Assembly (NCBI GenBank): GCA_030699445.1 | Contig: JAUYMO010000023.1 | Coordinates: 1-59,861 of the forward strand | Reading direction: 5' to 3' | DNA from: Candidatus Giovannonibacteria bacterium | Lineage (GTDB): Bacteria; Patescibacteriota; Minisyncoccia; UBA11713; 2-01-FULL-45-33 | DNA: 59,861 nucleotides | Part shown: one piece after another, positions 6,168 through 54,101 of the stretch | Position numbering within the stretch: position 1 is the first letter of the stretch | Layout of the letters: every line of letters starts with the position of its first letter | Notes under the pieces: generated by a model | Database searches by the model: none | Seen by the model: only the letters and a program-made list of their open reading frames with translations | What the model was told of the DNA's origin: nothing | Translations under genes and position numbers: made by a program

Positions 6168-6256
6168 ATCCACAGCGCGACTTGCTTTTTTAAAGTGGCG
6201 GCAGTAAAGTAAAAAAAGACGGCAAATTTTAACTTCTTTCAAGAAAGGAGAAAAGC

Positions 6257-6428: not shown

Positions 6429-6767
6429 ATGGGAGATGTGTTAAGATTTGATATTTCAAAAAAGAAATGGCGCCCTCGCGAAGCCTGTAGATTTTTTAGG
6501 CTAGTTGCGCACCCGCGCGCAGGAGCTCAAGAAATATATTATCGTTTCTGTGAAAAACAAAAGTTTATAAAAAAACCTGACCGCCGAGGTATTATGAGGC
6601 CGTGGAATCAAAAAGGGAAATATTTTGTCAGCACAGAAGATGAGATATTGGCTTTCAAGCGTTGCGAAAAAATCCACCCCTGCAGCCATTGCTCCAGATT
6701 CAGGCCAAAATTCCCTTTCCGCTTTAACAATATCGCGGTGCGCAAAGAGCAATCATCCCAACCTTAA
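6429..6767 (+). CDS. hypothetical basic Cys/His-containing protein (112 aa)
   Basis: Strong SD (aaaggagaggaggg), and a terminator directly after the stop. No family recognised. Confidence 0.45.
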   Translation: MGDVLRFDISKKKWRPREACRFFRLVAHPRAGAQEIYYRFCEKQKFIKKPDRRGIMRPWNQKGKYFVSTEDEILAFKRCEKIHPCSHCSRFRPKFPFRFNNIAVRKEQSSQP

Positions 6768-6792
6768 CCGCCCCATGTGGCGGTCTTTTTTT
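6767..6792 (+). terminator. rho-independent terminator
   Basis: Stem ACCGCC / GGCGGT followed by a T-run. Confidence 0.65.
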
Positions 6793-9037: not shown

Positions 9038-9915
9038 AACAAACGTGGGCGAGATTTTTCACGGCGTAAAAAGCGCCTCAATTTTATTTTTGCCCTTTCT
9101 TCCAACTGCCTGACCCGCTCGCGCGTTATGCCAAAACATTTTCCAATTTCTTCTAAAGTATAATCGCGGGCATATCCGATTCCGGAGCGCATTTTTAAAA
9201 TAATCGCGTCGCGCAAAGGCTTCAGCCCATCCAACCCGCGATTCATCAATTCCCGCACCTGATTTTCTTCCGCTAAAAATCCCGGCGAAGGCACCGTTTC
9301 GTCCGCAATAAAATCGCCGACTTCAGAGGCTTCATCGTCTCCAACTTGGGTATTTAAGCTGATCGGGTCTCTCACAGTGGCCAACGTATCAACAACCGTT
9401 TCCACCGGCAGTTGGAGTTTTTCAGCAAGCTCTTCCATTGTCGGCTTGCGCCCATATTGTTGGGCCAATGCGCCGAAAGCGCGATAAATTCTCTTAATTT
9501 TTTCAGTTTGGCCCACAGGAACTCTAATGGCGCACCCTTGGCCAATCAAAGCCCGCGCAATCCATGCTCTTATCCACGGACCGGCGTAGGTACTAAGCTT
9601 AATATCCAGCTTGTAATTGAATTTATCAACGGCTCTCATCAGCCCAAAATTGCCTTCAGATATTAAATCGGAAAAATCCATTGAAGGCTTTCTCGGATAA
9701 TGTTTAGCGATGTTAACCACCAAGCGCAGATTGGCTTTTATTATACTGCCGCGGATTTTAGCGGCTAGAGCAGAATTATCTTTCGCTTTTTTCAGCTCTG
9801 CAAACGCGGCTGCCTCTTCTTCTCTGCTTAAAAGAGGCGTCTGCCCGATTTCACGCAAATAAATATCAAGTGGGTCAATTTTTCGCTTTTTCATTTTTAC
9901 AGCGCCTCCTTTCAT
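9034..9915 (-). CDS. RNA polymerase sigma-70 family factor
   Basis: Region 2 (LISEGNFGLMRAVDKFNY) and region 4 HTH (YTLEEIGKCFGITRERVRQLEERA). Its 3' end overlaps alr by 4 nt, convergent. Confidence 0.85.
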   Translation of the reverse strand: MKGGAVKMKKRKIDPLDIYLREIGQTPLLSREEEAAAFAELKKAKDNSALAAKIRGSIIKANLRLVVNIAKHYPRKPSMDFSDLISEGNFGLMRAVDKFNYKLDIKLSTYAGPWIRAWIARALIGQGCAIRVPVGQTEKIKRIYRAFGALAQQYGRKPTMEELAEKLQLPVETVVDTLATVRDPISLNTQVGDDEASEVGDFIADETVPSPGFLAEENQVRELMNRGLDGLKPLRDAIILKMRSGIGYARDYTLEEIGKCFGITRERVRQLEERAKIKLRRFLRREKSRPRLF

Positions 9916-13009: not shown

Positions 13010-13040
13010 AATATCCTCATTGTACCACTAAACCCAAAAT

Positions 13041-13062
13041 GTCAGAAGTTCAAGTTTTGACA
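13041..13062 (+). repeat. hairpin GTCAGAAGTTCAAGTTTTGACA, copy A (31 nt upstream of the RAYT-like gene)
   Basis: 7-bp stem GTCAGAA / TTTTGAC. Identical to 13261-13282. It contains TTGACA. Confidence 0.7.
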
Positions 13063-13092: not shown

Positions 13093-13764
13093 ATGCCTAG
13101 AGTTAAATTTGGTGAGGGCGAATATTATCATATTTTTAATAGAGGCGTAGACAAGCGCCAAATTTTTTCAAACGACGCTGATAGATGGCGTTTTCTTACG
13201 CTGTTATGTGTTTTGCAGGGAGAAAATTCTTTTCCGCAAATCGGCCGCATAGTGCCTTTTGTCAGAAGTTCAAGTTTTGACAATGAGATGTTCGACGGGA
13301 CTATAAAGACAAAATATGTGGAATTGGTAAGTTTTTGCCTAATGCCAAACCATTTTCATTTGAAAATACGTGAACTTAAAGAAGGTGGCGTCTCTAAATT
13401 TATGCAGCGTTTGCTGGGCGCTTATACCAAATACTTTAATATGCGCCATGGCCGCACAGGGCATTTATTCGGCAGCAGATTCCACGCGGTTCATATAGAC
13501 AGCAATAAATATTTAAATTATCTTTCTGCTTACATTCACTTAAATCCCCGCGAATTAAAAGAGTGGCGCGGCAAAGAAATAAAATATCCATGGTCCAGTT
13601 TTCAGGATTTTACTTTTAAGAATCGTTGGAACGCTTTTTTAAATACCTCAATTATTCTAGATCAGTTTGCCACAAGATCAGAATACAAAAAATTCGTAGA
13701 AGATACCCCCATTAAGGAGTTGCGCGAAAATTTACCGGAAGAATATCAGAAGTTCGAGTTTTGA
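13093..13764 (+). CDS. IS200/RAYT-like HUH Y1 transposase family protein (paralog 1)
   Basis: YHIFNRG, an HUH motif (PNHFHL), and YLSAYIHLNP (catalytic Tyr region), as in COG1943/RayT-type proteins. Confidence 0.75.
   Translation: MPRVKFGEGEYYHIFNRGVDKRQIFSNDADRWRFLTLLCVLQGENSFPQIGRIVPFVRSSSFDNEMFDGTIKTKYVELVSFCLMPNHFHLKIRELKEGGVSKFMQRLLGAYTKYFNMRHGRTGHLFGSRFHAVHIDSNKYLNYLSAYIHLNPRELKEWRGKEIKYPWSSFQDFTFKNRWNAFLNTSIILDQFATRSEYKKFVEDTPIKELRENLPEEYQKFEF
13261..13282 (+). repeat. same hairpin, copy B (inside the ORF, near codon 57)
   Basis: Exact 22-mer repeat of 13041-13062. It is translated as FVRSSSFD. Confidence 0.7.
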
Positions 13765-13766
13765 CA
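13746..13766 (+). repeat. same hairpin, copy C (overlaps the stop codon)
   Basis: TCAGAAGTTCGAGTTTTGACA, with 1 mismatch. It covers the TGA at 13762-13764. Confidence 0.65.
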
Positions 13767-13930
13767 GATTTGTGGAAACCGCCATTTGTGCTTGCACATT
13801 ACCCCGCTAACTTGACACGTATTTTTAATTATGCTACATTAATAGCGGGTTCAGAATGAGTCAAAAACCGAATCGGGAGAAAAATTTAAAAGCATTTCTT
13901 CCGTGTTCTTTTAAAAGAAAGGTGGGAGCA

Positions 13931-14185
13931 ATGATTCAATATGGACAAGCGCACACCAGTAAGGATAGGAGGACAAAAAAGACCTATGCCTCACATTCTG
14001 ATTGGTTAGTGAGGGTTCTGGATGAAAGAGAGTTTTCACACCATACTAGCGGGTACAAAATAGCCACAGTAGAAGGAAAAGTGGCTGTCATTTACCTAGA
14101 CGGCCAAGTGGTGCGTCTCTTCCTAGACGAATTTCGTAATAAGAAAGAGTTCCGCGCCCACATCCGCCTAATATTAAGTGCATGA
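13931..14185 (+). CDS. hypothetical protein (84 aa from the ATG at 13931; the ORF is open from 13856)
   Basis: A ggtggga SD sits 5 nt before 13931. A TTGACA-17-TACATT promoter starts at 13812. No family recognised. Confidence 0.4.
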   Translation: MIQYGQAHTSKDRRTKKTYASHSDWLVRVLDEREFSHHTSGYKIATVEGKVAVIYLDGQVVRLFLDEFRNKKEFRAHIRLILSA

Positions 14186-14196
14186 TTTAAAGTCGT

Positions 14197-14247
14197 GCCC
14201 TGCCGAATCAATCGAGCTTAGCTCGGTCAATCGCGCGGGGCTTTTTT
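14197..14247 (+). terminator. long imperfect hairpin followed by a T-run
   Basis: GCCCTGCCGAATCAATCGAGC-TTA-GCTCGGTCAATCGCGCGGGGC followed by TTTTTT. Confidence 0.55.
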
Positions 14248-14281
14248 ATTTATGTAAATATGCCCAATTCTCTTTACGCGG

Positions 14282-14310
14282 TTGACTTCTGAAACCGGGT
14301 TTGCTAGAAT
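14282..14310 (+). promoter_or_regulatory. sigma-70-type promoter for rny
   Basis: TTGACT, a 17-nt spacer, then TAGAAT. Confidence 0.55.
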
Positions 14311-14362
14311 TGGATTATAATTTTATTAACAATGCTTTTTAAGACAGAACAAAAACAGATAT

Positions 14363-15889
14363 ATGGATATACTTACGCTTGTAAAAGCGGCTATTGCGCT
14401 TGTCGCGGGAGCGGCAGCCGGTTACTTTCTGCGTCAAATCATCGCCCAGCAAAGGAAGGACACGCTGGAGCTTAAGGCCAAGCAAATATTACTAGACGCG
14501 AAAGAATCCGCCCAAAAAACACTGGACGAAGCCAAGTCGCGCGCCGAAAAAATCTTGGAAGAGGCCAAGCGCGAACAAAAAGAACAGGAAAAAGAACTCC
14601 GAAAAATTGAGGAAAGATTGGCGCACAAAGACGAGGTTTTGGAAAAAAAATCCGCGGAGCTGGATAAAGAAACGCAAAACCTCCAGGAAAAAGTTGAAAA
14701 AGTGAAAGTAATGAAAGAACAGCTGGAAGCGATTGAAACCCAGAAGCGCGAGGAGCTGGCAAAAGTTGCCGGGCTTACAGAAGAAGAGGCCAAAACGAAA
14801 ATCATAGAAGAAGTTGAGAAAAAACACTCCAACGATATTTTGGCGCGCATCCAAAAAATAGAGCAGTTCGGTTTGGAAACTTTGGAAAGGAAAGCTCGGG
14901 ATATTCTGGCTTCGGTAATCCAGCGCGTCGCCTCATCCACCGCTTCCGAAGTCACGGTCACTTCTCTTACCATCCCTTCGGACGATATTAAAGGAAAAAT
15001 AATCGGAAAAGAAGGCAGAAACATCCGGGCATTTGAAAGAGCGGCGGGGGTTGAGTTGATTGTTGACGATACTCCCGGCGTAATTATTATTTCAAGTTTT
15101 GACCCGGTCAGGCGCCAGATCGCCAGAGTCGCTTTGGAAAATTTGATTTTGGACGGGCGGATACAGCCCGCGCGGATTGAGGAGATGGTTGAAAAAGCCA
15201 AAGTTGAAATTGAAAAAATCATCAAAGACGCCGGCGAAAAAGCGGCTTATGAAGTCGGGATTTTGGATGTTGACCCGAGGCTTTTGATGCTTGTCGGCAG
15301 GTTAAGGTTCAGGACTTCCTACGGCCAAAATGTTTTACAGCATTCGGTTGAAATGGCGCATATTTCCGGAATGTTGGCTTCGGAATTGAAAGCCGACGTC
15401 GGCATCGCCAAAAAAGGCGCGCTTTTGCACGACATCGGAAAAGCCGTTGACCACGAAATTCAGGGAACGCACGTTGAAATCGGCAGGAGAATTTTGCAGA
15501 AATTCAACGTGGACATCCGCGTAATCCAAGCAATGCAGTCGCACCATGAAGAATACCCTTACGACACTTTGGAATCAATTATTGTGCAGACGGCGGACGC
15601 GATTTCGGCATCCCGCCCGGGCGCACGCCGTGATAGCGTGGAAAATTATCTAAAACGATTGGAAGATTTGGAAAGAATCGCAAATACTTTTCCGGGCGTG
15701 GAAAAAACTTACGCAATCCAAGCGGGCAGAGAAATAAGAGTTTTCATAACGCCGGATAAAATTACGGATTTGGAAGCCAAAAAAATGGCGAGAGACATCG
15801 CCGACCGCATTGAGTCCGAATTAAAATATCCCGGAGAAATAAAAGTGAACGTAATCCGCGAACTCCGCGCGATTGAATACGCCAGGTAA
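14363..15889 (+). CDS. rny: ribonuclease Y
   Basis: N-terminal TM helix, long coiled coil, KH domain (IIGKEGRNIRAFE) and HD domain (LLHDIGKAVDHE). Confidence 0.92.
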   Translation: MDILTLVKAAIALVAGAAAGYFLRQIIAQQRKDTLELKAKQILLDAKESAQKTLDEAKSRAEKILEEAKREQKEQEKELRKIEERLAHKDEVLEKKSAELDKETQNLQEKVEKVKVMKEQLEAIETQKREELAKVAGLTEEEAKTKIIEEVEKKHSNDILARIQKIEQFGLETLERKARDILASVIQRVASSTASEVTVTSLTIPSDDIKGKIIGKEGRNIRAFERAAGVELIVDDTPGVIIISSFDPVRRQIARVALENLILDGRIQPARIEEMVEKAKVEIEKIIKDAGEKAAYEVGILDVDPRLLMLVGRLRFRTSYGQNVLQHSVEMAHISGMLASELKADVGIAKKGALLHDIGKAVDHEIQGTHVEIGRRILQKFNVDIRVIQAMQSHHEEYPYDTLESIIVQTADAISASRPGARRDSVENYLKRLEDLERIANTFPGVEKTYAIQAGREIRVFITPDKITDLEAKKMARDIADRIESELKYPGEIKVNVIRELRAIEYAR

Positions 15890-17031: not shown

Positions 17032-17053
17032 AAAGAAATCTTTTTAATTAAAA

Positions 17054-17078
17054 AGCTCCGCGATTGCGGAGCTTTTTA
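17054..17078. terminator. bidirectional hairpin terminator
   Basis: AGCTCCGC-GATT-GCGGAGCT, flanked by an A-run and a T-run. Confidence 0.7.
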
Positions 17079-17084
17079 ATTTTT

Positions 17085-17986: not shown

Positions 17987-18013
17987 AGCCCTATTATACC
18001 ACCTAAAAATAAA

Positions 18014-18039
18014 CCCCCCGCATGCGGGGGTTTTTTGTT
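18014..18039. terminator. GC hairpin flanked by A-run and T-run
   Basis: CCCCCGCATGCGGGGG with flanking runs, between tRNA-Pro and the DUF155 gene. Confidence 0.55.
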
Positions 18040-22600: not shown

Positions 22601-24082
22601 TCATTTAACATAATGCTTCTTTTTTATTTTTAAAACTTCTTCTTCTTCCAACCCTAATTGTTTTTTGCGGCCGGCTTCGGCGAGTTTTTTAAGCTCCGCG
22701 TCGGAAAGTTTGTTTAATTCTAAAACGCGCGTTTCCAGATATTCAGGCGTGTTTTTTTGCGGGTCTTCCAGCACCTCGTCAAAAATGGCGTTAAGCAAAA
22801 AACCTATGCGCATGCCCTGAGGAAGCCCCGCGAGCTCTTTTATTTTGTCGCCGTTTAACTTCATCATCTTAAGAGAAACCGGGTCTCTTTGCAATTTTTC
22901 CACCAAAAAACGGAAATGGCGCAATTTGTAGGGCTCGGCTTTGGGCACGCCCGAACCGATGCGGTCGCAGATGCGCACGCGGATTAAATCTTCCATATCC
23001 TCCGGCCCAACGCGCGAAATTAGGCGCCTGACTGATGATTCCGAAACTTCGTCAACGTTATAATAAAATAAGTGATAGCGCACGAGCTTTGTAACTTTTT
23101 CCGCGAAATCATTTCCGTATTTCAAGCGCGACAAAACTATCGCGGACATTCTGGCGCCGATTACTTCGTGGTTATAAAAAGTGGAATTGGGCCCGTCGCC
23201 CATTTTGGCGCGCGGTTTGCCGATGTCGTGAAATAGCGCGGACATTCTGACAACCAACGGCCATTTTTCTTTTGCCGCGTGGTCTAAAGCGCGCGAATTA
23301 TGCTCCCAGACGGTATAAATATGGTGCTTATTTTGGCCGATGCCGTAGCCCTCTTCAATTTCCGGTAAAAAAAGTTTTAAAATTCCTGCTTCGCGGAGCG
23401 CCTCAAGCCCCTCCGATGGCTTAGCCGACATGATGATTTTAGAAAATTCATCGCGGATGCGCTCCTTTGCTATCATTTTGAGCAAATTCGCCTTATTTTT
23501 CAACGCTTTTTCAGTTTTTGCTTCAATCGCAAATCCCAGCTCCGCGGAAAATCTTACGGCGCGCATTATGCGGAGGGCGTCTTCGGCGAATCTCTCTTCG
23601 GGATCGCCAACCGCGCGGATTATTTTTTTATCAAAATCTTTTTTACATTTGAAAGTATAATTTATTTGGAATTCGGACTTCCTAAGGAAGTCCGACTTCC
23701 TTAAATTCAATGCCATCGCATTTACCGTAAAATCCCTCCGCGCCAAGTCATCTTCCAATTTATCCGCGAATTTTATCTCGTCCGGGTGGCGCTTGTCTGA
23801 ATATTTTCCTTCTAAGCGGTACGGCGTGATTTCTATGGCGCGAAGTTTTGGATCTTCGGAGCCCGTAACAACGCTTACCGTCCCAAATTTATTTTCATAA
23901 AAACTTTTCGGGAAGAGCTCCTGTATTTTTTCCGGGCGGGCATTGGTTGTGATATCCCAATCCTGCGGAATTCTGCCAATTAAAAGATCGCGAACGCATC
24001 CACCGACAAGATACGCTTCAAATCCGGCGCCCTCTAAAATAGCGACAGCCGCTCTTATTTCTTTTGGAATAGTGAAATTCAT
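22601..24082 (-). CDS. cca: CCA-adding tRNA nucleotidyltransferase with HD domain
   Basis: GGCVRDLLIGR, DWDITT, RDFTVNAMA, ED.LRIMRAVRF and an HD domain (LFHDIGKP). It carries a palindromic element at 23674-23704. Confidence 0.9.
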   Translation of the reverse strand: MNFTIPKEIRAAVAILEGAGFEAYLVGGCVRDLLIGRIPQDWDITTNARPEKIQELFPKSFYENKFGTVSVVTGSEDPKLRAIEITPYRLEGKYSDKRHPDEIKFADKLEDDLARRDFTVNAMALNLRKSDFLRKSEFQINYTFKCKKDFDKKIIRAVGDPEERFAEDALRIMRAVRFSAELGFAIEAKTEKALKNKANLLKMIAKERIRDEFSKIIMSAKPSEGLEALREAGILKLFLPEIEEGYGIGQNKHHIYTVWEHNSRALDHAAKEKWPLVVRMSALFHDIGKPRAKMGDGPNSTFYNHEVIGARMSAIVLSRLKYGNDFAEKVTKLVRYHLFYYNVDEVSESSVRRLISRVGPEDMEDLIRVRICDRIGSGVPKAEPYKLRHFRFLVEKLQRDPVSLKMMKLNGDKIKELAGLPQGMRIGFLLNAIFDEVLEDPQKNTPEYLETRVLELNKLSDAELKKLAEAGRKKQLGLEEEEVLKIKKKHYVK

Positions 24083-24543: not shown

Positions 24544-24560
24544 GACGAGATGCGACCTCG
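24544..24560 (+). repeat. hairpin GACGAGATGCGACCTCG, copy A' (32 nt upstream of RAYT-like paralog 2)
   Basis: Identical 17-mer at 24748-24764. An inverted, 1-mismatch copy lies at 25271-25289. Confidence 0.7.
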
Positions 24561-24591
24561 ACATGGCTAGGAAACAGCGTATTATGGACAT

Positions 24592-25263
24592 ATGAGATTT
24601 GCTAAAGGCGAGTTTTATCACATTTACAATCGCGGGGTTGAAGGAAGAAATATTTTTATGGAAAGAGCGGATTATTTGCGATTCCTTCGCGGCTTAAAAG
24701 AATTTAACATTAATGGCAATACGAGGTTAGATCGCACAGCCGCTGCTGACGAGATGCGACCTCGTTCTCGTCAGAAACACACAGCATTAACATCAATTCT
24801 TGCCTATGTTTTGATGAAAAATCATATACATTTGTTGTTATATTGTATAAACGAAGAAAAGATGTCGCTTTTTCTGCAAAAAATTTTTGTTGGGCACACA
24901 ATGTACTTTAATACAAAATATCAAAGAACAGGCGTTCTCTTTCAGGGTAGATCAAAGTCTAAACATATTGACGACGATCACTATTTAAAACATCTAATTG
25001 ATTATATCCATTTAAATCCCTTAGATTATTCAATGCCCCAATGGCGAGAACACGGCATTAAAAATAGTTTGAGCACCAAAAACGAAATATTAAATTATCC
25101 ATGGTCAAGCGCAAAAAGCATAATAAATAACAAACCTAATCCGATTTTAAATGGAGAATTGGTCCGAGAGCTATTTCCTCATCCAAAAGAACTTTTAACG
25201 TCAGCGCTAGAATGGTCTTCAGAAAAATTTGAAGACGCAGCCGGCCTTTTAATTGAGCCTTAA
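24592..25263 (+). CDS. IS200/RAYT-like HUH Y1 transposase family protein (paralog 2)
   Basis: YHIYNRG, an HUH motif (KNHIHL) and HLIDYIHLNP. Same 223-aa length as paralog 1 but strongly diverged. Confidence 0.75.
   Translation: MRFAKGEFYHIYNRGVEGRNIFMERADYLRFLRGLKEFNINGNTRLDRTAAADEMRPRSRQKHTALTSILAYVLMKNHIHLLLYCINEEKMSLFLQKIFVGHTMYFNTKYQRTGVLFQGRSKSKHIDDDHYLKHLIDYIHLNPLDYSMPQWREHGIKNSLSTKNEILNYPWSSAKSIINNKPNPILNGELVRELFPHPKELLTSALEWSSEKFEDAAGLLIEP
24748..24765 (+). repeat. same hairpin, copy B' (inside the ORF, near codon 53)
   Basis: Translated as DEMRPRS. It also forms GACGAGA...TCTCGTC. Confidence 0.7.
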
Positions 25264-26136
25264 CTAACGTGACGAGGTCGCACCTCGTCGGCGGGCATGA
25301 AAAGCTTTATGGACTTCTTTTAATTGTTTGTCGGTAAAATGTGTGTAGATTTGCGTGGTGGAAATGTTGGAGTGGCCGAGCATAATCTGGACCGAACGGA
25401 GGTCGGCTCCGTTTTGCAATAAATCTGTGGCAAAAGCGTGGCGCAGGACATGCGGGGTGACTTTTTTGGCGATGCCCGCCTTAATCGCGTATTTTTTTAT
25501 CATTCGCTGGATTGAGCGCGGTGTCATCGGAAATAATTTATCGTTATCCACACTGCCGCGCTTTTCTAAATATTTTTTGATGGCCTCTTTGGCGCGGTCG
25601 GACAAAAAGACAACCCTAATCTTCCCGCCCTTTCCGCGGACGGAAAATTCGTCGCGTTTTAAATTAACATTATCAATTTTTAAATTGCAAAGCTCCGAAA
25701 TACGGAGTCCGGTTGAAAAAAAGAGTTCCAAAATCGCTTTGTCTCTTAAAATTTTCGCGGACTCGCCCTTGGGAGAGTCCAGCAATCTTTCCAAGTCGGC
25801 AATATCCAAAAGGTCTAATTCTCGCTGGGGAAGCTTGGCGAGCTCAATTTTTTCGGCATCCAGCGAATCAATATCTCTTTTCGCAAGATATTTCAAAAAC
25901 ATCCGGAGCGCGATGACATAATAATTCTGCGTATTTTTGTCCAAGTTCGCGCGGTTAAGATAAAGCCGGTATTTTCTTACTAACTCTTCGGTAATCTGGC
26001 CAGCAGAATCAATTTTTGAAAATTCAAAAAACCTTTTTAAATACCTGTCATAATTTTCTACAGTCTTCACGGCTCTCCCTTTTTCAATCTCTAGATATTC
26101 AAGAAACTCCTTCTTTAATTTTGCGACACTTTCCAT
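25264..26136 (-). CDS. tyrosine recombinase XerC/XerD family
   Basis: [31 protein letters not shown] and [14 protein letters not shown]. Confidence 0.88.
25271..25289 (-). repeat. same hairpin, copy C' (inverted, perfect 8-bp stem)
   Basis: GACGAGGT-CGC-ACCTCGTC, 8 nt after the RAYT-like stop. It encodes the last residues (RRGATSS) of the convergent xer gene. Confidence 0.7.
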
Positions 26137-38192: not shown

Positions 38193-39989
38193 ATGCTAGA
38201 TTTAGCGTTGTTAAATTCCAAACAAAAAGAGGCGGTGGAGGCCACAGAAGGGCCGGTTTTGGTTGTGGCGGGCGCCGGAGCGGGAAAAACCAAGGTCATC
38301 ACCGAGCGGATTAAATATTTAATTGAAAAAGATGTTCCACCCGAATCAATTTTGGCAGTTACTTTCACAAATAAAGCCGCGGGGGAGATGAAAAGCCGCG
38401 TGGCGCGTTCCGGCCCATTCATCGGCACTTTTCACGCTTTGGGGCTTTTAATTATCCGCGAAAACCTGAAAGGGCTAGGCATTGCCAAAAATTTTACTAT
38501 TTTAGACGAAGATGACGCCCTAAAACTCATAAAAGAATGCCTTTTGGAGTTAAAAATTGACCCGAAGCAATTTGACCCGTCCAGAATCAGAAATAATATT
38601 TCCCGCTTGAAAAATCAGATGATGACGGCGGATGAGTTTATTGAGGAAAGCGCATTTGGAAAAATACTGGGGAGAGTCTGGCGGCTTTATGAAGAAAAAA
38701 CCAAAGCGCAGAATTTGCTGGATTTTGACGATTTGCTTTTAAAGCCGGTTTTGCTTTTTAAAAAAGATGCCGAGGCGCTGAAAAAATATCAGGAGCGCTG
38801 GCGCTACATCCATATAGACGAATACCAGGATACAAACGAAGCGCAATATGTTTTGTCAAAAATGCTTGCGGAAAGTAGCCGCAATATTTTGGCGGTGGGC
38901 GACATTGACCAGGCAATCTACAGCTGGCGGGGAGCGGATTTTAAAAATGTTTTGAATTTCCAAAAAGATTATCCGGACGCCAAAGTTGTTTTTCTGGAAG
39001 AAAATTACCGCTCCACCGATATTATTTTGGAAGCGGCAAACGCCGTTATAACGCATAATAAATTCCGCATACCAAAAAATCTATGGACAAAAAGAACCGG
39101 CGAAAACCAAATCCGGATTTTTTTCGCGGAAGACGAAAAAAAGGAAGCGGAAATGGTCGCCAGCGAAATAAAATTCCTGAAAACAAAAATAAAATTGAGC
39201 GAAATGGCGGTTCTTTACCGCACCAACGCCCAATCGCGCGCCATGGAAGAAGTTTTTTTGGCGAAAAATATTCCTTATAAAATTACCGGCGGAGTGCGTT
39301 TTTACGAAAGGCGCGAAATAAAAGATTTAATAGCGTATCTAAGGCTTATTAGAAATCCGGAGAACGGATTGAGCTACAATAGAATCGCGAATGTCCCGCC
39401 GCGCAAAAAAAAGAAAATAGATTTTGACGCGCTTATAGAAAATTTACGTAACGATACTGACAATATAAACGCGCAAGAACTCCTAAAAAAAATTATTAGT
39501 AAAATAGAATATAGAGACTATATTGATGACGGAACGGAGAAGGGAAAAGAAAGATGGCAAAATGTGGAAGAGCTTCTGGGTCTCGCCCAAAAAATAGAAA
39601 ATTTGGATGAATTTTTGGAGCATATTTCTCTTTTTGCCATAGATGATAATTACGATAAAATTGAGGACCGCGTGAGTTTAATGACCATGCATTCAGCCAA
39701 AGGGCTTGAATTTGAAGCTGTTTTTGTGGTTGGCTTGGAAGAGGGGCTTTCCCCGCACACGCTTTCATTTGAACCGGAGGATTTGGAAGAAGAGCGCCGG
39801 CTTTATTACGTGGCCATAACCCGCGCCAAAACTCATCTCTATCTGACCGCGGCCGGGCGCCGGACTCTTTTCGGCGAGCGCGCGGCGAATATGCCTTCCA
39901 GATTTTTAAAAGAAATCCCCGAGCATTTGCTGGTTTATTTAAATAAACGGGAGGGCGAAGAAATAGAAGAAAATATTTATGTTGAATAA
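38193..39989 (+). CDS. uvrD: UvrD/PcrA/Rep-family DNA helicase (short, 598 aa)
   Basis: AGAGAGKTKV, DEYQDTN, VGDIDQAIYSWRGA, LEENYRS, TMHSAKGLEF and YVAITRAK. Confidence 0.9.
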   Translation: MLDLALLNSKQKEAVEATEGPVLVVAGAGAGKTKVITERIKYLIEKDVPPESILAVTFTNKAAGEMKSRVARSGPFIGTFHALGLLIIRENLKGLGIAKNFTILDEDDALKLIKECLLELKIDPKQFDPSRIRNNISRLKNQMMTADEFIEESAFGKILGRVWRLYEEKTKAQNLLDFDDLLLKPVLLFKKDAEALKKYQERWRYIHIDEYQDTNEAQYVLSKMLAESSRNILAVGDIDQAIYSWRGADFKNVLNFQKDYPDAKVVFLEENYRSTDIILEAANAVITHNKFRIPKNLWTKRTGENQIRIFFAEDEKKEAEMVASEIKFLKTKIKLSEMAVLYRTNAQSRAMEEVFLAKNIPYKITGGVRFYERREIKDLIAYLRLIRNPENGLSYNRIANVPPRKKKKIDFDALIENLRNDTDNINAQELLKKIISKIEYRDYIDDGTEKGKERWQNVEELLGLAQKIENLDEFLEHISLFAIDDNYDKIEDRVSLMTMHSAKGLEFEAVFVVGLEEGLSPHTLSFEPEDLEEERRLYYVAITRAKTHLYLTAAGRRTLFGERAANMPSRFLKEIPEHLLVYLNKREGEEIEENIYVE

Positions 39990-40770
39990 GCAAAAAAAGT
40001 TTTTGGGCCAGCATTTTCTAAAAAATAAAAAAATCTTGGAGGAGATGGCGCGCGCGGCGGAAATTTCTAAGAAAGATATTGTTTTGGAAGTCGGCCCGGG
40101 CTTGGGCTCGCTTACGGAAATTTTGGCGGAGCGCGCCGGAAAAGTAATCGCGATAGAAAAAGACAGGGATTTAATTCCTGTTTTGCGCGAGAAATTCAAA
40201 AATTATAAAAATGTTGAAATTATTGAAGGAGATATTTTAAAAATTAAATACCTCCCCTTGCCCCTCCTTGTAAAGGAGGGGATAAAACATTATAAAATTG
40301 TCGCCAATCTTCCATACTATATAACCTCGCGTTTTCTGCGCCTATTCTTGTCCCAAACCAGGTTTAGGTCAAAGCTGATGGTGCTTATGGTTCAAAAAGA
40401 AGTCGCCGAAAGAATTTTGGCGCGCGACGGAAAGGAATCTTTGCTTTCTCTTTCCGTAAAAGCTTACGCTAAAGCGGAAATTATACGGCGCGTTTCAAAA
40501 AATTTTTTCTCGCCTCCGCCAAAAGTTGATTCGGCAATAATTAAGCTAACCCCTTACCCCCAAACCCCCTTTCCCCTTCGTAAGGGGAAAGGGGGCGATG
40601 TTGAAAAAATTCTTGCCGTTGCTAAAATCGCCTTCCAGCAAAAACGCAAAATGCTCCGGCATTCTCTTTCGAGGTTCAACCTTAATAATTTAGAAGAATA
40701 TGGAAATAAGCGCCCGGAAGAACTTAGCTTTAAAGACTGGGTTCATATTCACACCCTAATTGTGCCGTAA
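39979..40770 (+). CDS. rsmA: 16S rRNA (adenine1518/1519-N6)-dimethyltransferase RsmA/KsgA
   Basis: LGQHFL, EVGPGLGSLT, ANLPYYITS and FSPPPKVDSA. Two GC hairpin elements lie inside the ORF (40251-40283 and 40550-40596). Confidence 0.9.
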   Translation: MLNKQKKFLGQHFLKNKKILEEMARAAEISKKDIVLEVGPGLGSLTEILAERAGKVIAIEKDRDLIPVLREKFKNYKNVEIIEGDILKIKYLPLPLLVKEGIKHYKIVANLPYYITSRFLRLFLSQTRFRSKLMVLMVQKEVAERILARDGKESLLSLSVKAYAKAEIIRRVSKNFFSPPPKVDSAIIKLTPYPQTPFPLRKGKGGDVEKILAVAKIAFQQKRKMLRHSLSRFNLNNLEEYGNKRPEELSFKDWVHIHTLIVP

Positions 40771-46001: not shown

Positions 46002-46709
46002 ATGGATGAAACAAATAAAAACATAGAAATAATGGAGCGATATAAAGACCTGCCGGAAGATATCCAGCAAGCTCTCTTTTCATCCGCGACTTCGGATGCG
46101 ATTTTAGCAATCGGCAAAAAAAATGGGCTGGCAATTGATAAAATCGGGGAGTTGGTTGATGAAACCGGTTTGGTAATGCTTGGAATCACTTCGCCTTCGG
46201 ATTATGTAAAAAATCTGGTGAGCCGATTAAGTGTAACGCAAGAAAAGGCGCGCGCCATCGCGGAAGAAATCAACCAAAAAGTTTTCCAGCCGGTAAGAGA
46301 GTCGCTGAAGAAGATTCATGGGTTGGCGGCAGAAAAGCCCACACCACCCCCCCCAGCCCCCCCCTTCGTAAGGGGGGGAGCTGAAGAAAAACCCCTTCCC
46401 CCTTACGAAGGGGGAAGGGAAGGGCTAGGGGTTAAAAAACCTCTCCCCAAACGCGAAGATATTGTCCCGCCGCCCAAAGCGCTTCCCAAACCGGAAATCC
46501 CGGAACCACTTCTAATCCCGCCGATTTTCGTTAAAAAATTTCCCGAGCCGATAGTTTCTAAACCCGATATTGTTCCTCCCGCGAAAGAACCGTTGCCGCA
46601 AGATTCTCTCGCGGCCAAAAGCGCGCTGGATAAAGAATTAAACGCTCCGCCATCACCGCGGCCACAGCAGTATAAAGAAAAAGACCCTTATCGTGAGATA
46701 ATAGAATAA
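46002..46709 (+). CDS. Pro-rich protein (T4SS-like locus)
   Basis: Globular N-terminal 105 aa, then a P-rich tail that includes two C-run/G-run hairpin elements (46357-46378 and 46393-46419). Confidence 0.5.
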   Translation: MDETNKNIEIMERYKDLPEDIQQALFSSATSDAILAIGKKNGLAIDKIGELVDETGLVMLGITSPSDYVKNLVSRLSVTQEKARAIAEEINQKVFQPVRESLKKIHGLAAEKPTPPPPAPPFVRGGAEEKPLPPYEGGREGLGVKKPLPKREDIVPPPKALPKPEIPEPLLIPPIFVKKFPEPIVSKPDIVPPAKEPLPQDSLAAKSALDKELNAPPSPRPQQYKEKDPYREIIE

Positions 46710-46710
46710 T

Positions 46711-47133
46711 ATGCAGCACCAAGTCCCACAATTTATAGATATAGAAGATAAAATTTTCGGGCCTTTAACGGCCAAGCAGTTTTTCTATATCTTGGGCGGC
46801 GCCGCTATTCTTTTTATAATGTACGTTTATCTTCAGCTTTGGCTGGTAATTATTCTTGGCGCTCCGGTCGCGGCGTTCGCCGGTTCTCTGGCGTTTTTGA
46901 AAATCAACGGCCAGCCATTTATTAAAATTCTTGGGAGCGCCATAGATTACGCTTCTTCGGCAAGATTATATTTGTGGAAGAAGAGCCCGCCGCGCGGGAA
47001 AACACTCGGTGTTTTTGGGGATTCAACACCGAGTGTTGAGGAGCGCGAGCGGGCTACAACCCCCAAACTCACCCAAAGCAAATTACAAGATTTATCCTGG
47101 TCCTTAGACATCCAAAAAAATATTAAACGATAA
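46711..47133 (+). CDS. PrgI-family (VirB3-analogue) membrane protein
   Basis: QVPQFIDIEDKIFGPLTAKQFFYILGG plus two TM helices, directly upstream of VirB4-like genes. It carries the 37-nt element at 47001-47037. Confidence 0.65.
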   Translation: MQHQVPQFIDIEDKIFGPLTAKQFFYILGGAAILFIMYVYLQLWLVIILGAPVAAFAGSLAFLKINGQPFIKILGSAIDYASSARLYLWKKSPPRGKTLGVFGDSTPSVEERERATTPKLTQSKLQDLSWSLDIQKNIKR

Positions 47134-52874: not shown

Positions 52875-54101
52875 ATGGAAAATTTATTAACAAAAAGAAA
52901 TATAATAATCGCGGGGGTGGGAATAGTTATTCTCATCGGAATTTTGTTTTATTTTGGGTCAAAAAGCGGGACGCAGGGAACGGGAGGGGGGGGATTTTTA
53001 GGAACTATTTTTCCGTCTTCGGCGCCCTCCCCAACACTCGGTGTTGGCGGGCCTCAAACACCGAGTGTTTTGCCAGGCGGCGAACTGCCTCTAACCCCTC
53101 AAGCCGCCCAAAGTTTGCCTGTGGGCACATTAATTCGCTTGAGTGATGATAATATTTCTTCTCTTGTTGGAGTTGGCACAACGTCAGTCCGCTACCATAA
53201 AAATATTCCTGAAAATCTTGGGCATCTTTTTGAAAGGCGCGCGGACGGCGCGAGCGAAGAAAAAAGGATTTCCAATTTCACCATTCCGCAGGTTTTGCGC
53301 GTGGTCTGGGCGCCGGACGCCAAGCGCGCCGTGATTTTTTATAATTTAGATAATCAAATAAGAAAACTTTTGATTGATTACTCAACCACAACCCCAAAAA
53401 CGAATTTTCTTCCGGACGCCGTTTCGGATGTGGCTTTTTCTCCCGATTCCAAATCGCTGGCGTTTATAAATGATAGTGGTGACACCCAAAATATTTTTAC
53501 GGCAACGTCTGATTTTAAAAACCAAAGAAAAATTTTGGATAACGACATTCCTGGCCTGGAAATTTCCTGGCCGGCCGCGAACACAATCGCTTTAAAAACA
53601 AAATCATCCTACGCCGTGCGCGGATTTTTATACGCGGTTAATATAGGAAGCGGGGCATTTTCAAAAATCGCCGAAGGGCTGGGCTTGGACGCCATTTGGA
53701 ATAAAGACGGCTCGGGAGTGCTTTATTCCAGAAGCGACGCGGACGGCAATATATTGAACATTAAATTTTTGGACATAAAAACCGGCGCGGAAAAAGAATT
53801 TTCAGTAAAAACCATCGCTGAAAAATGCGCGTTTTTAAATACCTTAAAAAATATCGCTTACTGCGGAGTCCCCCGATTAAGCGCAGGCCGGATTACCGAA
53901 AAGCAGCCCGACGCATGGTGGCAGGGAAAAGTAAGTTTCCAAGATAATTTTGTTTCGCTGGACACCGCGACCGGCCAAAATTCTGTTTTTGTCCCGACTC
54001 CCACAGACATTACCCAGCCAAAACTGCTTTTAGACGATTCTTCCCTCCTTTTCCGCGACAAAACCTCCGGCAATCTTTGGAGCTTAAAATTGAAGCCTTA
54101 G
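52875..54101 (+). CDS. membrane-anchored TolB-like beta-propeller protein
   Basis: TM helix (IIIAGVGIVILIGILFYF), a Gly/Pro linker with the 37-nt element (53033-53069), and PD40-like repeats (VAFSPDSKSLAFINDSGD). Confidence 0.5.
   Translation: MENLLTKRNIIIAGVGIVILIGILFYFGSKSGTQGTGGGGFLGTIFPSSAPSPTLGVGGPQTPSVLPGGELPLTPQAAQSLPVGTLIRLSDDNISSLVGVGTTSVRYHKNIPENLGHLFERRADGASEEKRISNFTIPQVLRVVWAPDAKRAVIFYNLDNQIRKLLIDYSTTTPKTNFLPDAVSDVAFSPDSKSLAFINDSGDTQNIFTATSDFKNQRKILDNDIPGLEISWPAANTIALKTKSSYAVRGFLYAVNIGSGAFSKIAEGLGLDAIWNKDGSGVLYSRSDADGNILNIKFLDIKTGAEKEFSVKTIAEKCAFLNTLKNIAYCGVPRLSAGRITEKQPDAWWQGKVSFQDNFVSLDTATGQNSVFVPTPTDITQPKLLLDDSSLLFRDKTSGNLWSLKLKP

Follow-up and report, generated by a model that had tools for sequence, protein, structure and literature searches.

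C-rich/G-rich hairpin repeats lying in frame inside rsmA and a second gene of a Candidatus Giovannonibacteria contig

Introduction

What are two perfect C-rich/G-rich palindromes doing inside the reading frame of rsmA, the gene of the 16S rRNA dimethyltransferase KsgA? The question is raised by a stretch of 59,861 nucleotides from a Candidatus Giovannonibacteria bacterium (contig JAUYMO010000023.1), referred to below, in its full length, as the window, in which two more palindromes of the same kind lie in frame inside a second gene, an open reading frame (ORF) at 46002-46709. The original prediction had described these four C-run/G-run hairpins together with their peptides and had proposed that they are discrete DNA elements translated in frame and not conserved features of the proteins. 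All four are present as described, and the comparisons reported here support the proposal: the two RsmA segments are not conserved at the protein level among orthologs, the same DNA is met in different frames, and copies are found in other genes and in other genomes. To this description our analysis adds a third, mirror-symmetric block, many other hairpin families at the same loops, and two Y1 transposase genes that resemble those of the REP-associated tyrosine transposases (RAYTs; REP, repetitive extragenic palindromic).

We consider it probable, at roughly two chances in three, that the C/G sites are small repeats of the BoxC/PIT type located inside genes, that they form one of several classes of REP-like hairpins, and that they are read through in loops of the host proteins. 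The kind of repeat is itself known; the intragenic location of such triplex-type or REP-like palindromes is unusual.

Four Hairpins in Two Genes

The G+C content of the window is 44%, and the RsmA protein encoded in it is nearest to proteins named Candidatus Giovannonibacteria, a group of the Candidate Phyla Radiation (CPR, or Patescibacteria). The elements, numbered 1 to 4 in the order of their positions (Table 1), are 21-46 nt long. In all of them the left arm consists of C and T only, the right arm consists of A and G only, the loop is 3 nt long, and the host ORF is read in frame, remaining intact through the element without a stop codon. Because arms made of C and T only or of A and G only can contain no stop codon in any frame, a repeat of this class should be especially tolerable inside ORFs. 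Ribosomal bypassing or splicing of the hairpins was also considered and is unlikely, since every copy keeps the frame without a stop, though a bias towards such copies is expected because they were found through called ORFs.

The four hairpins are real and non-random. They are the only ones of their type in 59.9 kb, where about 0.3-0.5 would be expected from Markov simulations: hairpins with a pyrimidine arm, a purine arm, a stem of at least 7 bp and a 3-nt loop number 4 against 0.53 expected, and a count of the C-rich imperfect version likewise gives 4, against 0.3 expected. The sequence CCTTNNNAAGG is present 6 times in the window (1.42 expected), a count that was reached in none of 100 shuffles. 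Predicted folding energies of elements 1-4 as single-stranded DNA are -9.5, -17.1, -11.6 and -14.0 kcal/mol, with z-scores ranging from -3.1 to -4.8 (-3.5 for element 1 and -4.8 for element 2). The excess extends to the clade: a census of perfect triloop hairpins with a stem of at least 9 bp found 35 of them in 272 kb of Giovannonibacteria-like DNA, where 2.4 were expected, and 31 of the 35 lie inside long open frames; in a set of more distant loci (1.18 Mb) 42 of 76 such hairpins are intragenic. A search of Rfam with the whole window at gathering score, and with two regions at permissive E-values, returned only tRNAs and chance-level miRNA-like matches.

Dispersal and Reading Frames

The relatives and other genomes used for comparison are designated below by L-numbers, and the places of elements 1 and 2 in rsmA are called site 1 and site 2. 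The arms of element 1 recur at rsmA site 2 of L082, which has a decayed copy at site 1, and the whole unit, CCCCTCCTT/AAGGAGGGG with its mirror box, is also found in the orthologs of ORF 46002-46709 in L094 and L026, with the box on the opposite side. In a scan of metagenome contigs, the exact 21-nt core of element 2 was found in two copies of rsmA and in three contexts unrelated to rsmA, the latter sharing a 5' AACCCCTTT box that is absent from the query. The tsaD gene of L089 contains a further C/G copy, whose mirror box matches at 10 of 10 positions.

The host of elements 3 and 4, which gave no match in a Pfam scan, has orthologs in L002, L003, L006, L092, L094 and L026. Element 3 is homologous to L026:17787-17816 in the same linker, and elements 3 and 4 together are homologous to a pair in that linker, the L026 protein being only 40% identical; the two elements are lacking in the closer relatives L002, L003, L006 and L092. 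The same ORF contains homopolymer runs of C8, C8 and G7 (46343-46378 and 46410-46431) that could slip and shift the frame of a gene in this secretion/conjugation-like locus, and GGGGGAAGGGAAGGGCTAGGGG in this region fits the four-tract G-quadruplex pattern, an alternative fold to the hairpin.

A single DNA unit can be met in two or three frames, so that it reads PLLVKEG in one place and PPPYQGG in another, or else PLRKG, PFVRG or PPYEGG. The DNA itself may be very well conserved. The rsmA genes of the window and of L081 and L083 are 69-70% identical in nucleotides and 51% identical at third codon positions, while the element 2 block is identical at 30-31 of 31 positions and is the best-conserved 11-codon stretch of the gene (nucleotide identity 0.94-1.0, the median of the gene being 0.76), even though the protein loop encoded there is highly variable. 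Judging by these alignments, the conserved unit is the DNA and not the peptide, and the four sites are dispersed DNA repeat units rather than products of the local sequence. Dispersal, the differing frames and identity across genomes thus speak against the hairpins having arisen locally or being selected as peptides; they argue for recent spread or exchange, or for a constraint that acts on the DNA.

A Third Block and the Orientation of the Elements

Set in one orientation, most copies show an A-rich lead followed by a pyrimidine box that lies 1-5 nt upstream of the C arm and mirrors it. The box of element 1 matches its arm at 7 of 7 positions (CCTCCCC-ttg-CCCCTCC; shuffle p 0.0055). Mirror boxes next to asymmetric arms are present in L089 (CCTCTCCCCC-ag-CCCCCTCTCC, 10/10), L086 (CCCCTTT-gaa-TTTCCCC) and L044 (TCCCTCT-tac-TCTCCCT), and L094 and L026 have a G-box, GGGGAGG, downstream.

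An arrangement of this type is known as the BoxC/PIT or intrastrand triplex motif, in which a C-rich block and a complementary G-rich block are accompanied by a third, mirror block (Holder et al. 2015, PMC4666352, citing Hoyne et al. 2000). A scan by criteria comparable to the published ones (three consecutive blocks, stems of 6-15 nt with at most one mismatch if longer than 7 nt, loops of 1-6 nt) found 3 in the window and 0 in 40 Markov shuffles; element 2 was left out of the three solely by the loop limit of the scan. Element 1, with 7 of 7 triads (9 if one mismatch is allowed) and loops of 3 and 3, lies within these block limits, and elements 2 (11 of 12 triads) and 3 (C8/C8/G7) both fit the three-block pattern; element 4 is matched on the minus strand alone, by 7 triads with one mismatch, and taken at full length it is degenerate (7-8 of 10). 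The order of the blocks is the one needed for an intramolecular triple helix, and it is a reasonable reading that the elements may fold as triplexes. Motifs of the triplex type are intragenic in the Patescibacteria loci and mostly intergenic in the loci of Chloroflexota and others.

A perfect hairpin of a C arm and a G arm reads C arm first on both strands, and only its loop and flanks mark its orientation. The claim that the elements insert in either direction had been drawn from the loops (ACG versus CGT). As a marker of insertion orientation the loop had to be rejected, because it flips between orthologs: in L088 the orthologous rsmA site carries ACG instead of the CGT of the window, while its box has not changed sides. 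The claim stands on different ground, namely that the three-block unit of element 1 (CCTCCCC/CCCCTCCTT/AAGGAGGGG) exists in both orientations relative to the host gene, so that the C/G family inserts either way. Element 4 could possibly be a reversed copy; its downstream G box is homologous to GGGGCTAGGGGAGG, a part of an older L026 element.

Turnover at the Two rsmA Loops

When 40 RsmA orthologs (60-78% identity) are aligned, the main indel hotspots prove to be the two sites, whose segments are hypervariable. Site 1 lies between GDIL and NLPYY and site 2 between KVDS and AFQQKRK. In the AlphaFold2 (AF2) model of RsmA, whose mean predicted local distance difference test score (pLDDT) is 82.5, site 1 is placed between strands E79-83 and E104-110 (block pLDDT ~63) and site 2 between strand 185-192 and helix 208-220 (pLDDT 60-66, below 50 at residues 201-205), so that both are predicted to be low-confidence loops between conserved secondary-structure elements. 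The KsgA of B. subtilis (6ifs) aligns ungapped at site 1 and leaves an 8-residue gap at site 2, which implies that the elements occupy or extend loops common to all KsgA. The suggestion that KsgA has no segments at these positions is therefore wrong for site 1 and, as a whole, only partly right.

Several relatives have a different perfect hairpin at an orthologous site (Table 1), L094 has two C/G-type hairpins at site 2, and hairpins are absent from both sites in L002 and from site 1 in L001, L005 and L011. These hairpin states form a patchwork on the tree of the remaining RsmA protein. Site 2 of L092 holds the hairpin of RAYT-like gene 1 of the window, described below, exactly where the window has element 2, which indicates that the hairpins associated with the enzyme and those of the C/G class share their landing sites. 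The hairpin families of the rsmA sites recur in other genes with the loop flipped (L005:20275, L004:13475). By this comparison, sites 1 and 2 are turnover hotspots that in relatives have unrelated hairpins or none.

A third, imperfect hairpin of rsmA, TGTCCCAAAC-CAG-GTTTAGGTCA at 40349-40371 (LSQTRFRSK), lies in a loop of normal length. Its pairing is kept by two-sided changes, L006, L092 and L094 having TGTCCGAAAC-TAA-GTTTCGGYCA, and other orthologs have segments of the NPPAGG- or TECWLC-type at this position. A frameshift located in a T-run, some 40 nt upstream of the site-2 hairpin, splits the rsmA gene of L006 (8748-9466), which could be a pseudogene or reflect an error of assembly.

Table 1. 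Positions and layout of the hairpins and host genes discussed in the text, with hairpins at orthologous rsmA sites of relatives.
Feature	Position	Strand	Sequence and layout	Remarks
rsmA (KsgA, 16S rRNA dimethyltransferase)	39979..40770	+		263-aa ORF; Pfam RrnaAD 5.3e-58; host of elements 1 and 2
Element 1, rsmA site 1	40251..40281	+	mirror box CCTCCCC 40251-40257, linker TTG, C arm 40261-40269, loop GTA, G arm 40273-40281; hairpin CCCCTCCTT-GTA-AAGGAGGGG at 40261-40281, perfect 9-bp stem	read as YLPLPLLVKEG
Element 2, rsmA site 2 (linker between domains)	40550..40595	+	box CCCCTTACCCCC 40550-40561, linker AAA, C arm 40565-40578, loop CGT, G arm 40582-40595; hairpin CCCCCTTTCCCCTT-CGT-AAGGGGAAAGGGGG at 40565-40595, perfect 14-bp stem	read as TPYPQTPFPLRKGKGG
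ORF 46002-46709	46002..46709	+		Pro-rich linker; upstream of PrgI-like, TraC-like and TraG/VirB4-like ATPase genes; host of elements 3 and 4
Element 3	46347..46378	+	C8 box 46347-46354, linker AG, C8TT arm 46357-46366, loop CGT, AAG7 arm 46370-46378; hairpin C8-TT-CGT-AA-G7 at 46357-46378, perfect 9-bp stem spanning 46358-46378	read as PPPPAPPFVRGG
Element 4	46393..46431	-	C arm 46393-46404, loop ACG, G arm 46408-46419, linker AA, degenerate G box GGGCTAGGGG 46422-46431; hairpin CCCTTCCCCCTT-ACG-AAGGGGGAAGGG at 46393-46419, perfect 12-bp stem	family layout fits only as reverse complement; read as PLPPYEGGREGLG
L001, rsmA site 2			GCCCCCCTTA-AGG-TAAGGGGGGC	different perfect hairpin
L003 and L092, rsmA site 1			GGCGGTTAAACCGCC-AAGT/ACTT-GGCGGTTTAACCGCC	different perfect hairpin
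L003 and L004, rsmA site 2			ACTTAGACGT-CCG-ACGTCTAAGT	different perfect hairpin
L005, rsmA site 2			TTGTCAAACAT-TGG-ATGTTTGACAA	different perfect hairpin
L011, rsmA site 2			TGTTGAACAT-TGA-ATGTTCAACA	different perfect hairpin
RAYT-like Y1 (HUH) transposase gene 1	13093..13764	+	hairpin TGTCAGAAGTTCAAGTTTTGACA at 13040-13062 (5' flank), 13260-13282 (inside, codons ~56-64) and 13744-13766 (3' end)	223 aa; Pfam Y1_Tnp 4.5e-11
RAYT-like Y1 transposase gene 2	24592..25263	+	hairpin GACGAGRTGCGACCTCG at 24544-24562, 24748-24766 (inside) and 25271-25289 (3' flank, inverted); starts GACG, ends CGTC	223 aa; Pfam Y1_Tnp match; 35% identical to gene 1
Hairpin GGAATTCGGACTTCC-TAA-GGAAGTCCGACTTCC	23668..23700			inside CCA-adding/poly(A) polymerase-family gene 22601-24082 (-)
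Inverted doublet	46999..47039		AAAACAC-TCG-GTGTTTT + TCAACAC-CGA-GTGTTGA	inside PrgI-like ORF 46711-47133

RAYT-Like Genes and Their Hairpins

Each of the two Y1 transposase genes of the window is accompanied by copies of its own hairpin (Table 1). The best NCBIfam match of both proteins is REP-associated tyrosine transposase at about 38 bits, below the cut-off of 80, for which reason they are called RAYT-like here. The HUH motifs of the two paralogs are NHFH and NHIH. Gene 1 is syntenic in L089 and L090, where it stands between the genes of iPGM and RNase Y, and a vertically inherited, low-copy Y1/HUH transposase, as is characteristic of REP/REPIN-RAYT systems, is thus present in this genome.

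The internal hairpin copy of each gene is located at +155 to +182, before the HUH motif, and co-varies with the copies in the flanks. The same layout of flanking and internal hairpins is repeated in L017:9226-9978, L038:4871-5638, L089:9946-10672 and L095:9959-10668, and in the wider family the internal segment reads V-K-H-R-M-F-D or similar, corresponding to GTCAAACAT-NNN-ATGTTTGAC. The Y1 family has 36,335 representatives at E <= 0.001 and is common in Patescibacteria.

Two features of the surroundings may be added. A gene of an XerC/XerD-type tyrosine recombinase (25264-26136, minus strand; Phage_integrase 6e-45) adjoins the 3' hairpin of RAYT-like gene 2, and the distance from gene 1 to the RNase Y gene is about 600 nt in the window (13765-14362) versus about 130 nt in the syntenic L089.

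Comparison With Known Repeats

The elements resemble BoxC/PIT repeats in having three blocks, the second of which follows after a loop of 3-6 nt, in their stems of 7-12 nt and G/C-richness, in occurring in several copies per genome, far above scrambled expectation, on either strand and sometimes as close pairs, and in their location at variable loci. Intrastrand triplex motifs occur in large numbers in certain Enterobacteria and Cyanobacteria, are invariably intergenic in E. coli K-12, and are tied to unstable loci and genomic instability, with no known mobilising enzyme (PMC4666352). In contrast to the E. coli K-12 motifs, the copies in the window and in other Patescibacteria lie in frame inside ORFs; moreover, the hairpin stems of the window are longer and perfect, and the E. 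coli TMECO consensus (CCCTCNCCC...GGGNGAGGG...GGGNGAGGG) has 0 matches in the window.

With REP/REPIN-RAYT systems the region has in common dispersed stem-loop palindromes of 20-40 nt in lineage-specific families, inverted doublets, syntenic Y1/HUH genes that have their own hairpins in the flanks and are present as two single-copy paralogs, and intragenic copies that code loop residues of conserved proteins, including UvrD-type helicases. Intragenic REPs coding loop residues, again including those of UvrD-type helicases, are a minority and have been described in several bacteria (Di Nocera et al. 2013, PMC3733652). Here, on the other hand, hairpins are mostly intragenic (31/35) and not extragenic, the RAYT-like proteins score 38 bits against the cut-off of 80 and have their own hairpin also within the coding sequence, neither GTAG, CTAC, CGTC nor GACG is present in or beside any of the four C/G elements, and the C/G hairpins are distinct from those around the RAYT-like genes of the window.

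Selfish palindromes lying in frame in conserved genes of reduced genomes, at surface regions of the products, also make the elements comparable to Rickettsia palindromic elements (RPE) and to mitochondrial GC clusters and hairpin elements of fungi, sponges and placozoans. RPE are the classic longer in-frame example, RPE-1 having roughly 100-150 bp. The elements of the window are 21-46 nt long and are likened to RPE by description and not by sequence, and their host is a free-living or episymbiotic CPR bacterium rather than an organelle or an obligate intracellular bacterium. The literature consulted contains no account of such elements, or of RAYT or REP, in CPR/Patescibacteria, though its coverage is incomplete and this is weak evidence of absence.

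Possible Origin and Maintenance of the Elements

In our preferred reading, a small G/C-rich repeat with a pyrimidine arm and a purine arm, which forms a perfect hairpin and in most copies carries a third block mirroring the C arm, resides inside genes of a compact genome, at surface loops and linkers that tolerate extra residues. The ribosome would read through the elements, producing peptides that are first Pro-rich and then Gly/Lys/Arg/Glu-rich, and the C/G class is one among several kinds of short REP-like hairpin repeat which, in this clade, share certain loops of conserved proteins and take each other's place there. The elements may spread as single-stranded hairpins by means of a Y1/HUH (RAYT-like) enzyme or a similar activity.

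A number of observations weigh against this reading. Both RAYT-like genes of the window are flanked by hairpins other than the C/G class, an internal segment coded by a C/G hairpin was found in none of about 270 members of the Y1 family (122 close and 148 representative), and the two RAYT-like genes and these family members together revealed no enzyme linked to the C/G class. The nearest genomes (L092, L081, L083 and L001) display neither empty sites with clean borders nor target duplications; identity to the closest relatives is no higher than about 72-78%, and the sites resemble replaced cassettes and not simple insertions. The mirror arrangement has moderate support: in a comparison with direct repeats it wins 6:2 and ties in 7 cases (a crude shuffle test gave a Fisher p of 4e-5), many arms are so nearly mirror-symmetric that the two kinds of repeat are indistinguishable there, and in L001 and L094 the 5' box instead forms Watson-Crick pairs with the 3' box. 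Translation of the elements is likely judging from intact reading frames only, and the count of C/G copies in the source genome, which is four, covers one contig of about 60 kb.

The hairpins could instead be structural signals selected by the host, their repeat nature being secondary: they might pause transcription or translation at domain boundaries, affect mRNA stability or provide local instability. It is difficult to reconcile this with the absence of a hairpin, or the presence of quite different hairpins, at the same sites of close relatives, with the mixed orientation relative to mRNA, in which a purine-type triplex cannot form (PMC4666352), or with the occurrence of the same units in intergenic DNA of other bacteria. 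A host signal would account for the nucleotide conservation of element 2, which exceeds that of the surrounding gene, for the element pair common to the window and the distant L026, and for the position of site 2 at the exact linker between the two KsgA domains, and the link of triplex motifs to genomic instability (PMC4666352) agrees with it; all in all, we think it unlikely.

We find it distinctly unlikely that the palindromes arose locally, through template switching during replication that copied the C-run of proline codons into its reverse complement and was then tolerated in loops. Template switching is documented as a source of perfect hairpins (PMC10710096), the two host segments are rich in proline, flipped loops at an orthologous site show that arm-to-arm processes occur, and the sites resemble replacements of similar length more than they do clean insertions. 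A mirror-symmetric block, however, cannot come from templated copying, the high identity across genomes is not expected of independent local events, and identical units with the flanking box turn up in unrelated genomes and in other genes, at sites that are not homologous and in either orientation.

Two further readings are extremely improbable: an assembly artefact, and protein-level selection that favoured flexible Pro/Gly-rich linkers and made the DNA palindromic only incidentally, as might be suggested by peptides typical of disordered linkers and by low AF2 confidence. Third codon positions do not break the perfect pairing of the stems, the same DNA is met in different frames, the peptides are not conserved among orthologs, and the same elements are present in independent assemblies from different samples.

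If the repeats are indeed small intragenic elements, then in the most streamlined bacterial genomes small selfish palindromes would persist inside essential genes and not between them, and would be a major source of insertions and length variation in CPR proteins. Much of the odd Pro/Gly/Lys-rich "linker" sequence of these proteins would be translated repeat DNA, which bears on annotation, alignment and phylogeny, and triplex-type motifs, hitherto described as intergenic, would be extended into coding DNA. Sites 1 and 2 of rsmA would offer a tractable case for the study of target choice and re-use by hairpin repeats, and the RAYT-like genes with their own hairpin would suggest a testable enzyme-substrate pair. 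A bolder and rather doubtful idea is that Parcubacteria may run an intragenic REPIN-RAYT partnership, in which domesticated Y1/HUH transposases, each with its own hairpin in its coding sequence, maintain several hairpin and triplex families mainly in protein-coding genes. The elements would replace one another in a cassette-like manner at recurrent landing sites in loops of conserved proteins, under constraint on the DNA, and would hence have a function and not just be tolerated; they might, for instance, generate local variation or serve as signals for replication or transcription.

Other Hairpins and Terminators

The hairpin family found in the CCA-adding/poly(A) polymerase-family gene is also present at L005:2152-2185 and L089:6757-6790. 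The inverted doublet in the PrgI-like ORF consists of 7-bp hairpins (AACAC-TCG-GTGTT and its reverse complement) in a REPIN-like layout; it belongs to the AACAY-NNN-RTGTT class, as do the hairpins inside and beside the RAYT-like genes, and has a related copy at 53031-53047. The tsaD gene of L089 (5842-6990, minus strand) holds three different hairpin families: CCCCCTCTCCTT-CGC-AAGGAGAGGGGG at 6205-6231, ACTTAGACGT-CCG-ACGTCTAAGT at 6585-6607 and GGAAGTCCGGCTTCC-AAGT-GGAAGCCGGACTTCC at 6757-6790. A dispersed family, ACCCCCACACCAA-NNN-TTGGTGTGGGGGT, occurs in frame in genes of UvrD-type helicases and PNPase of several Patescibacteria (L001:8452-8482 and 9665-9695; L094:98-128; L078:2791-2819; L079:13699-13724).

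On the sense strand, none of the four elements received a terminator call. Element 4 with the TTTTTCTT that follows it was called terminator-like when read on the antisense strand (46420-46392); overall, the region has no more such calls than chance would give (11 vs 11.4). The ordinary terminators of the clade differ in that they consist of an A-tract, a G/C hairpin and a T-tract, are intergenic and are probably bidirectional, examples being those at 17046-17081 and 18011-18034 of the window and at L089:13170-13195 and 15033-15058.

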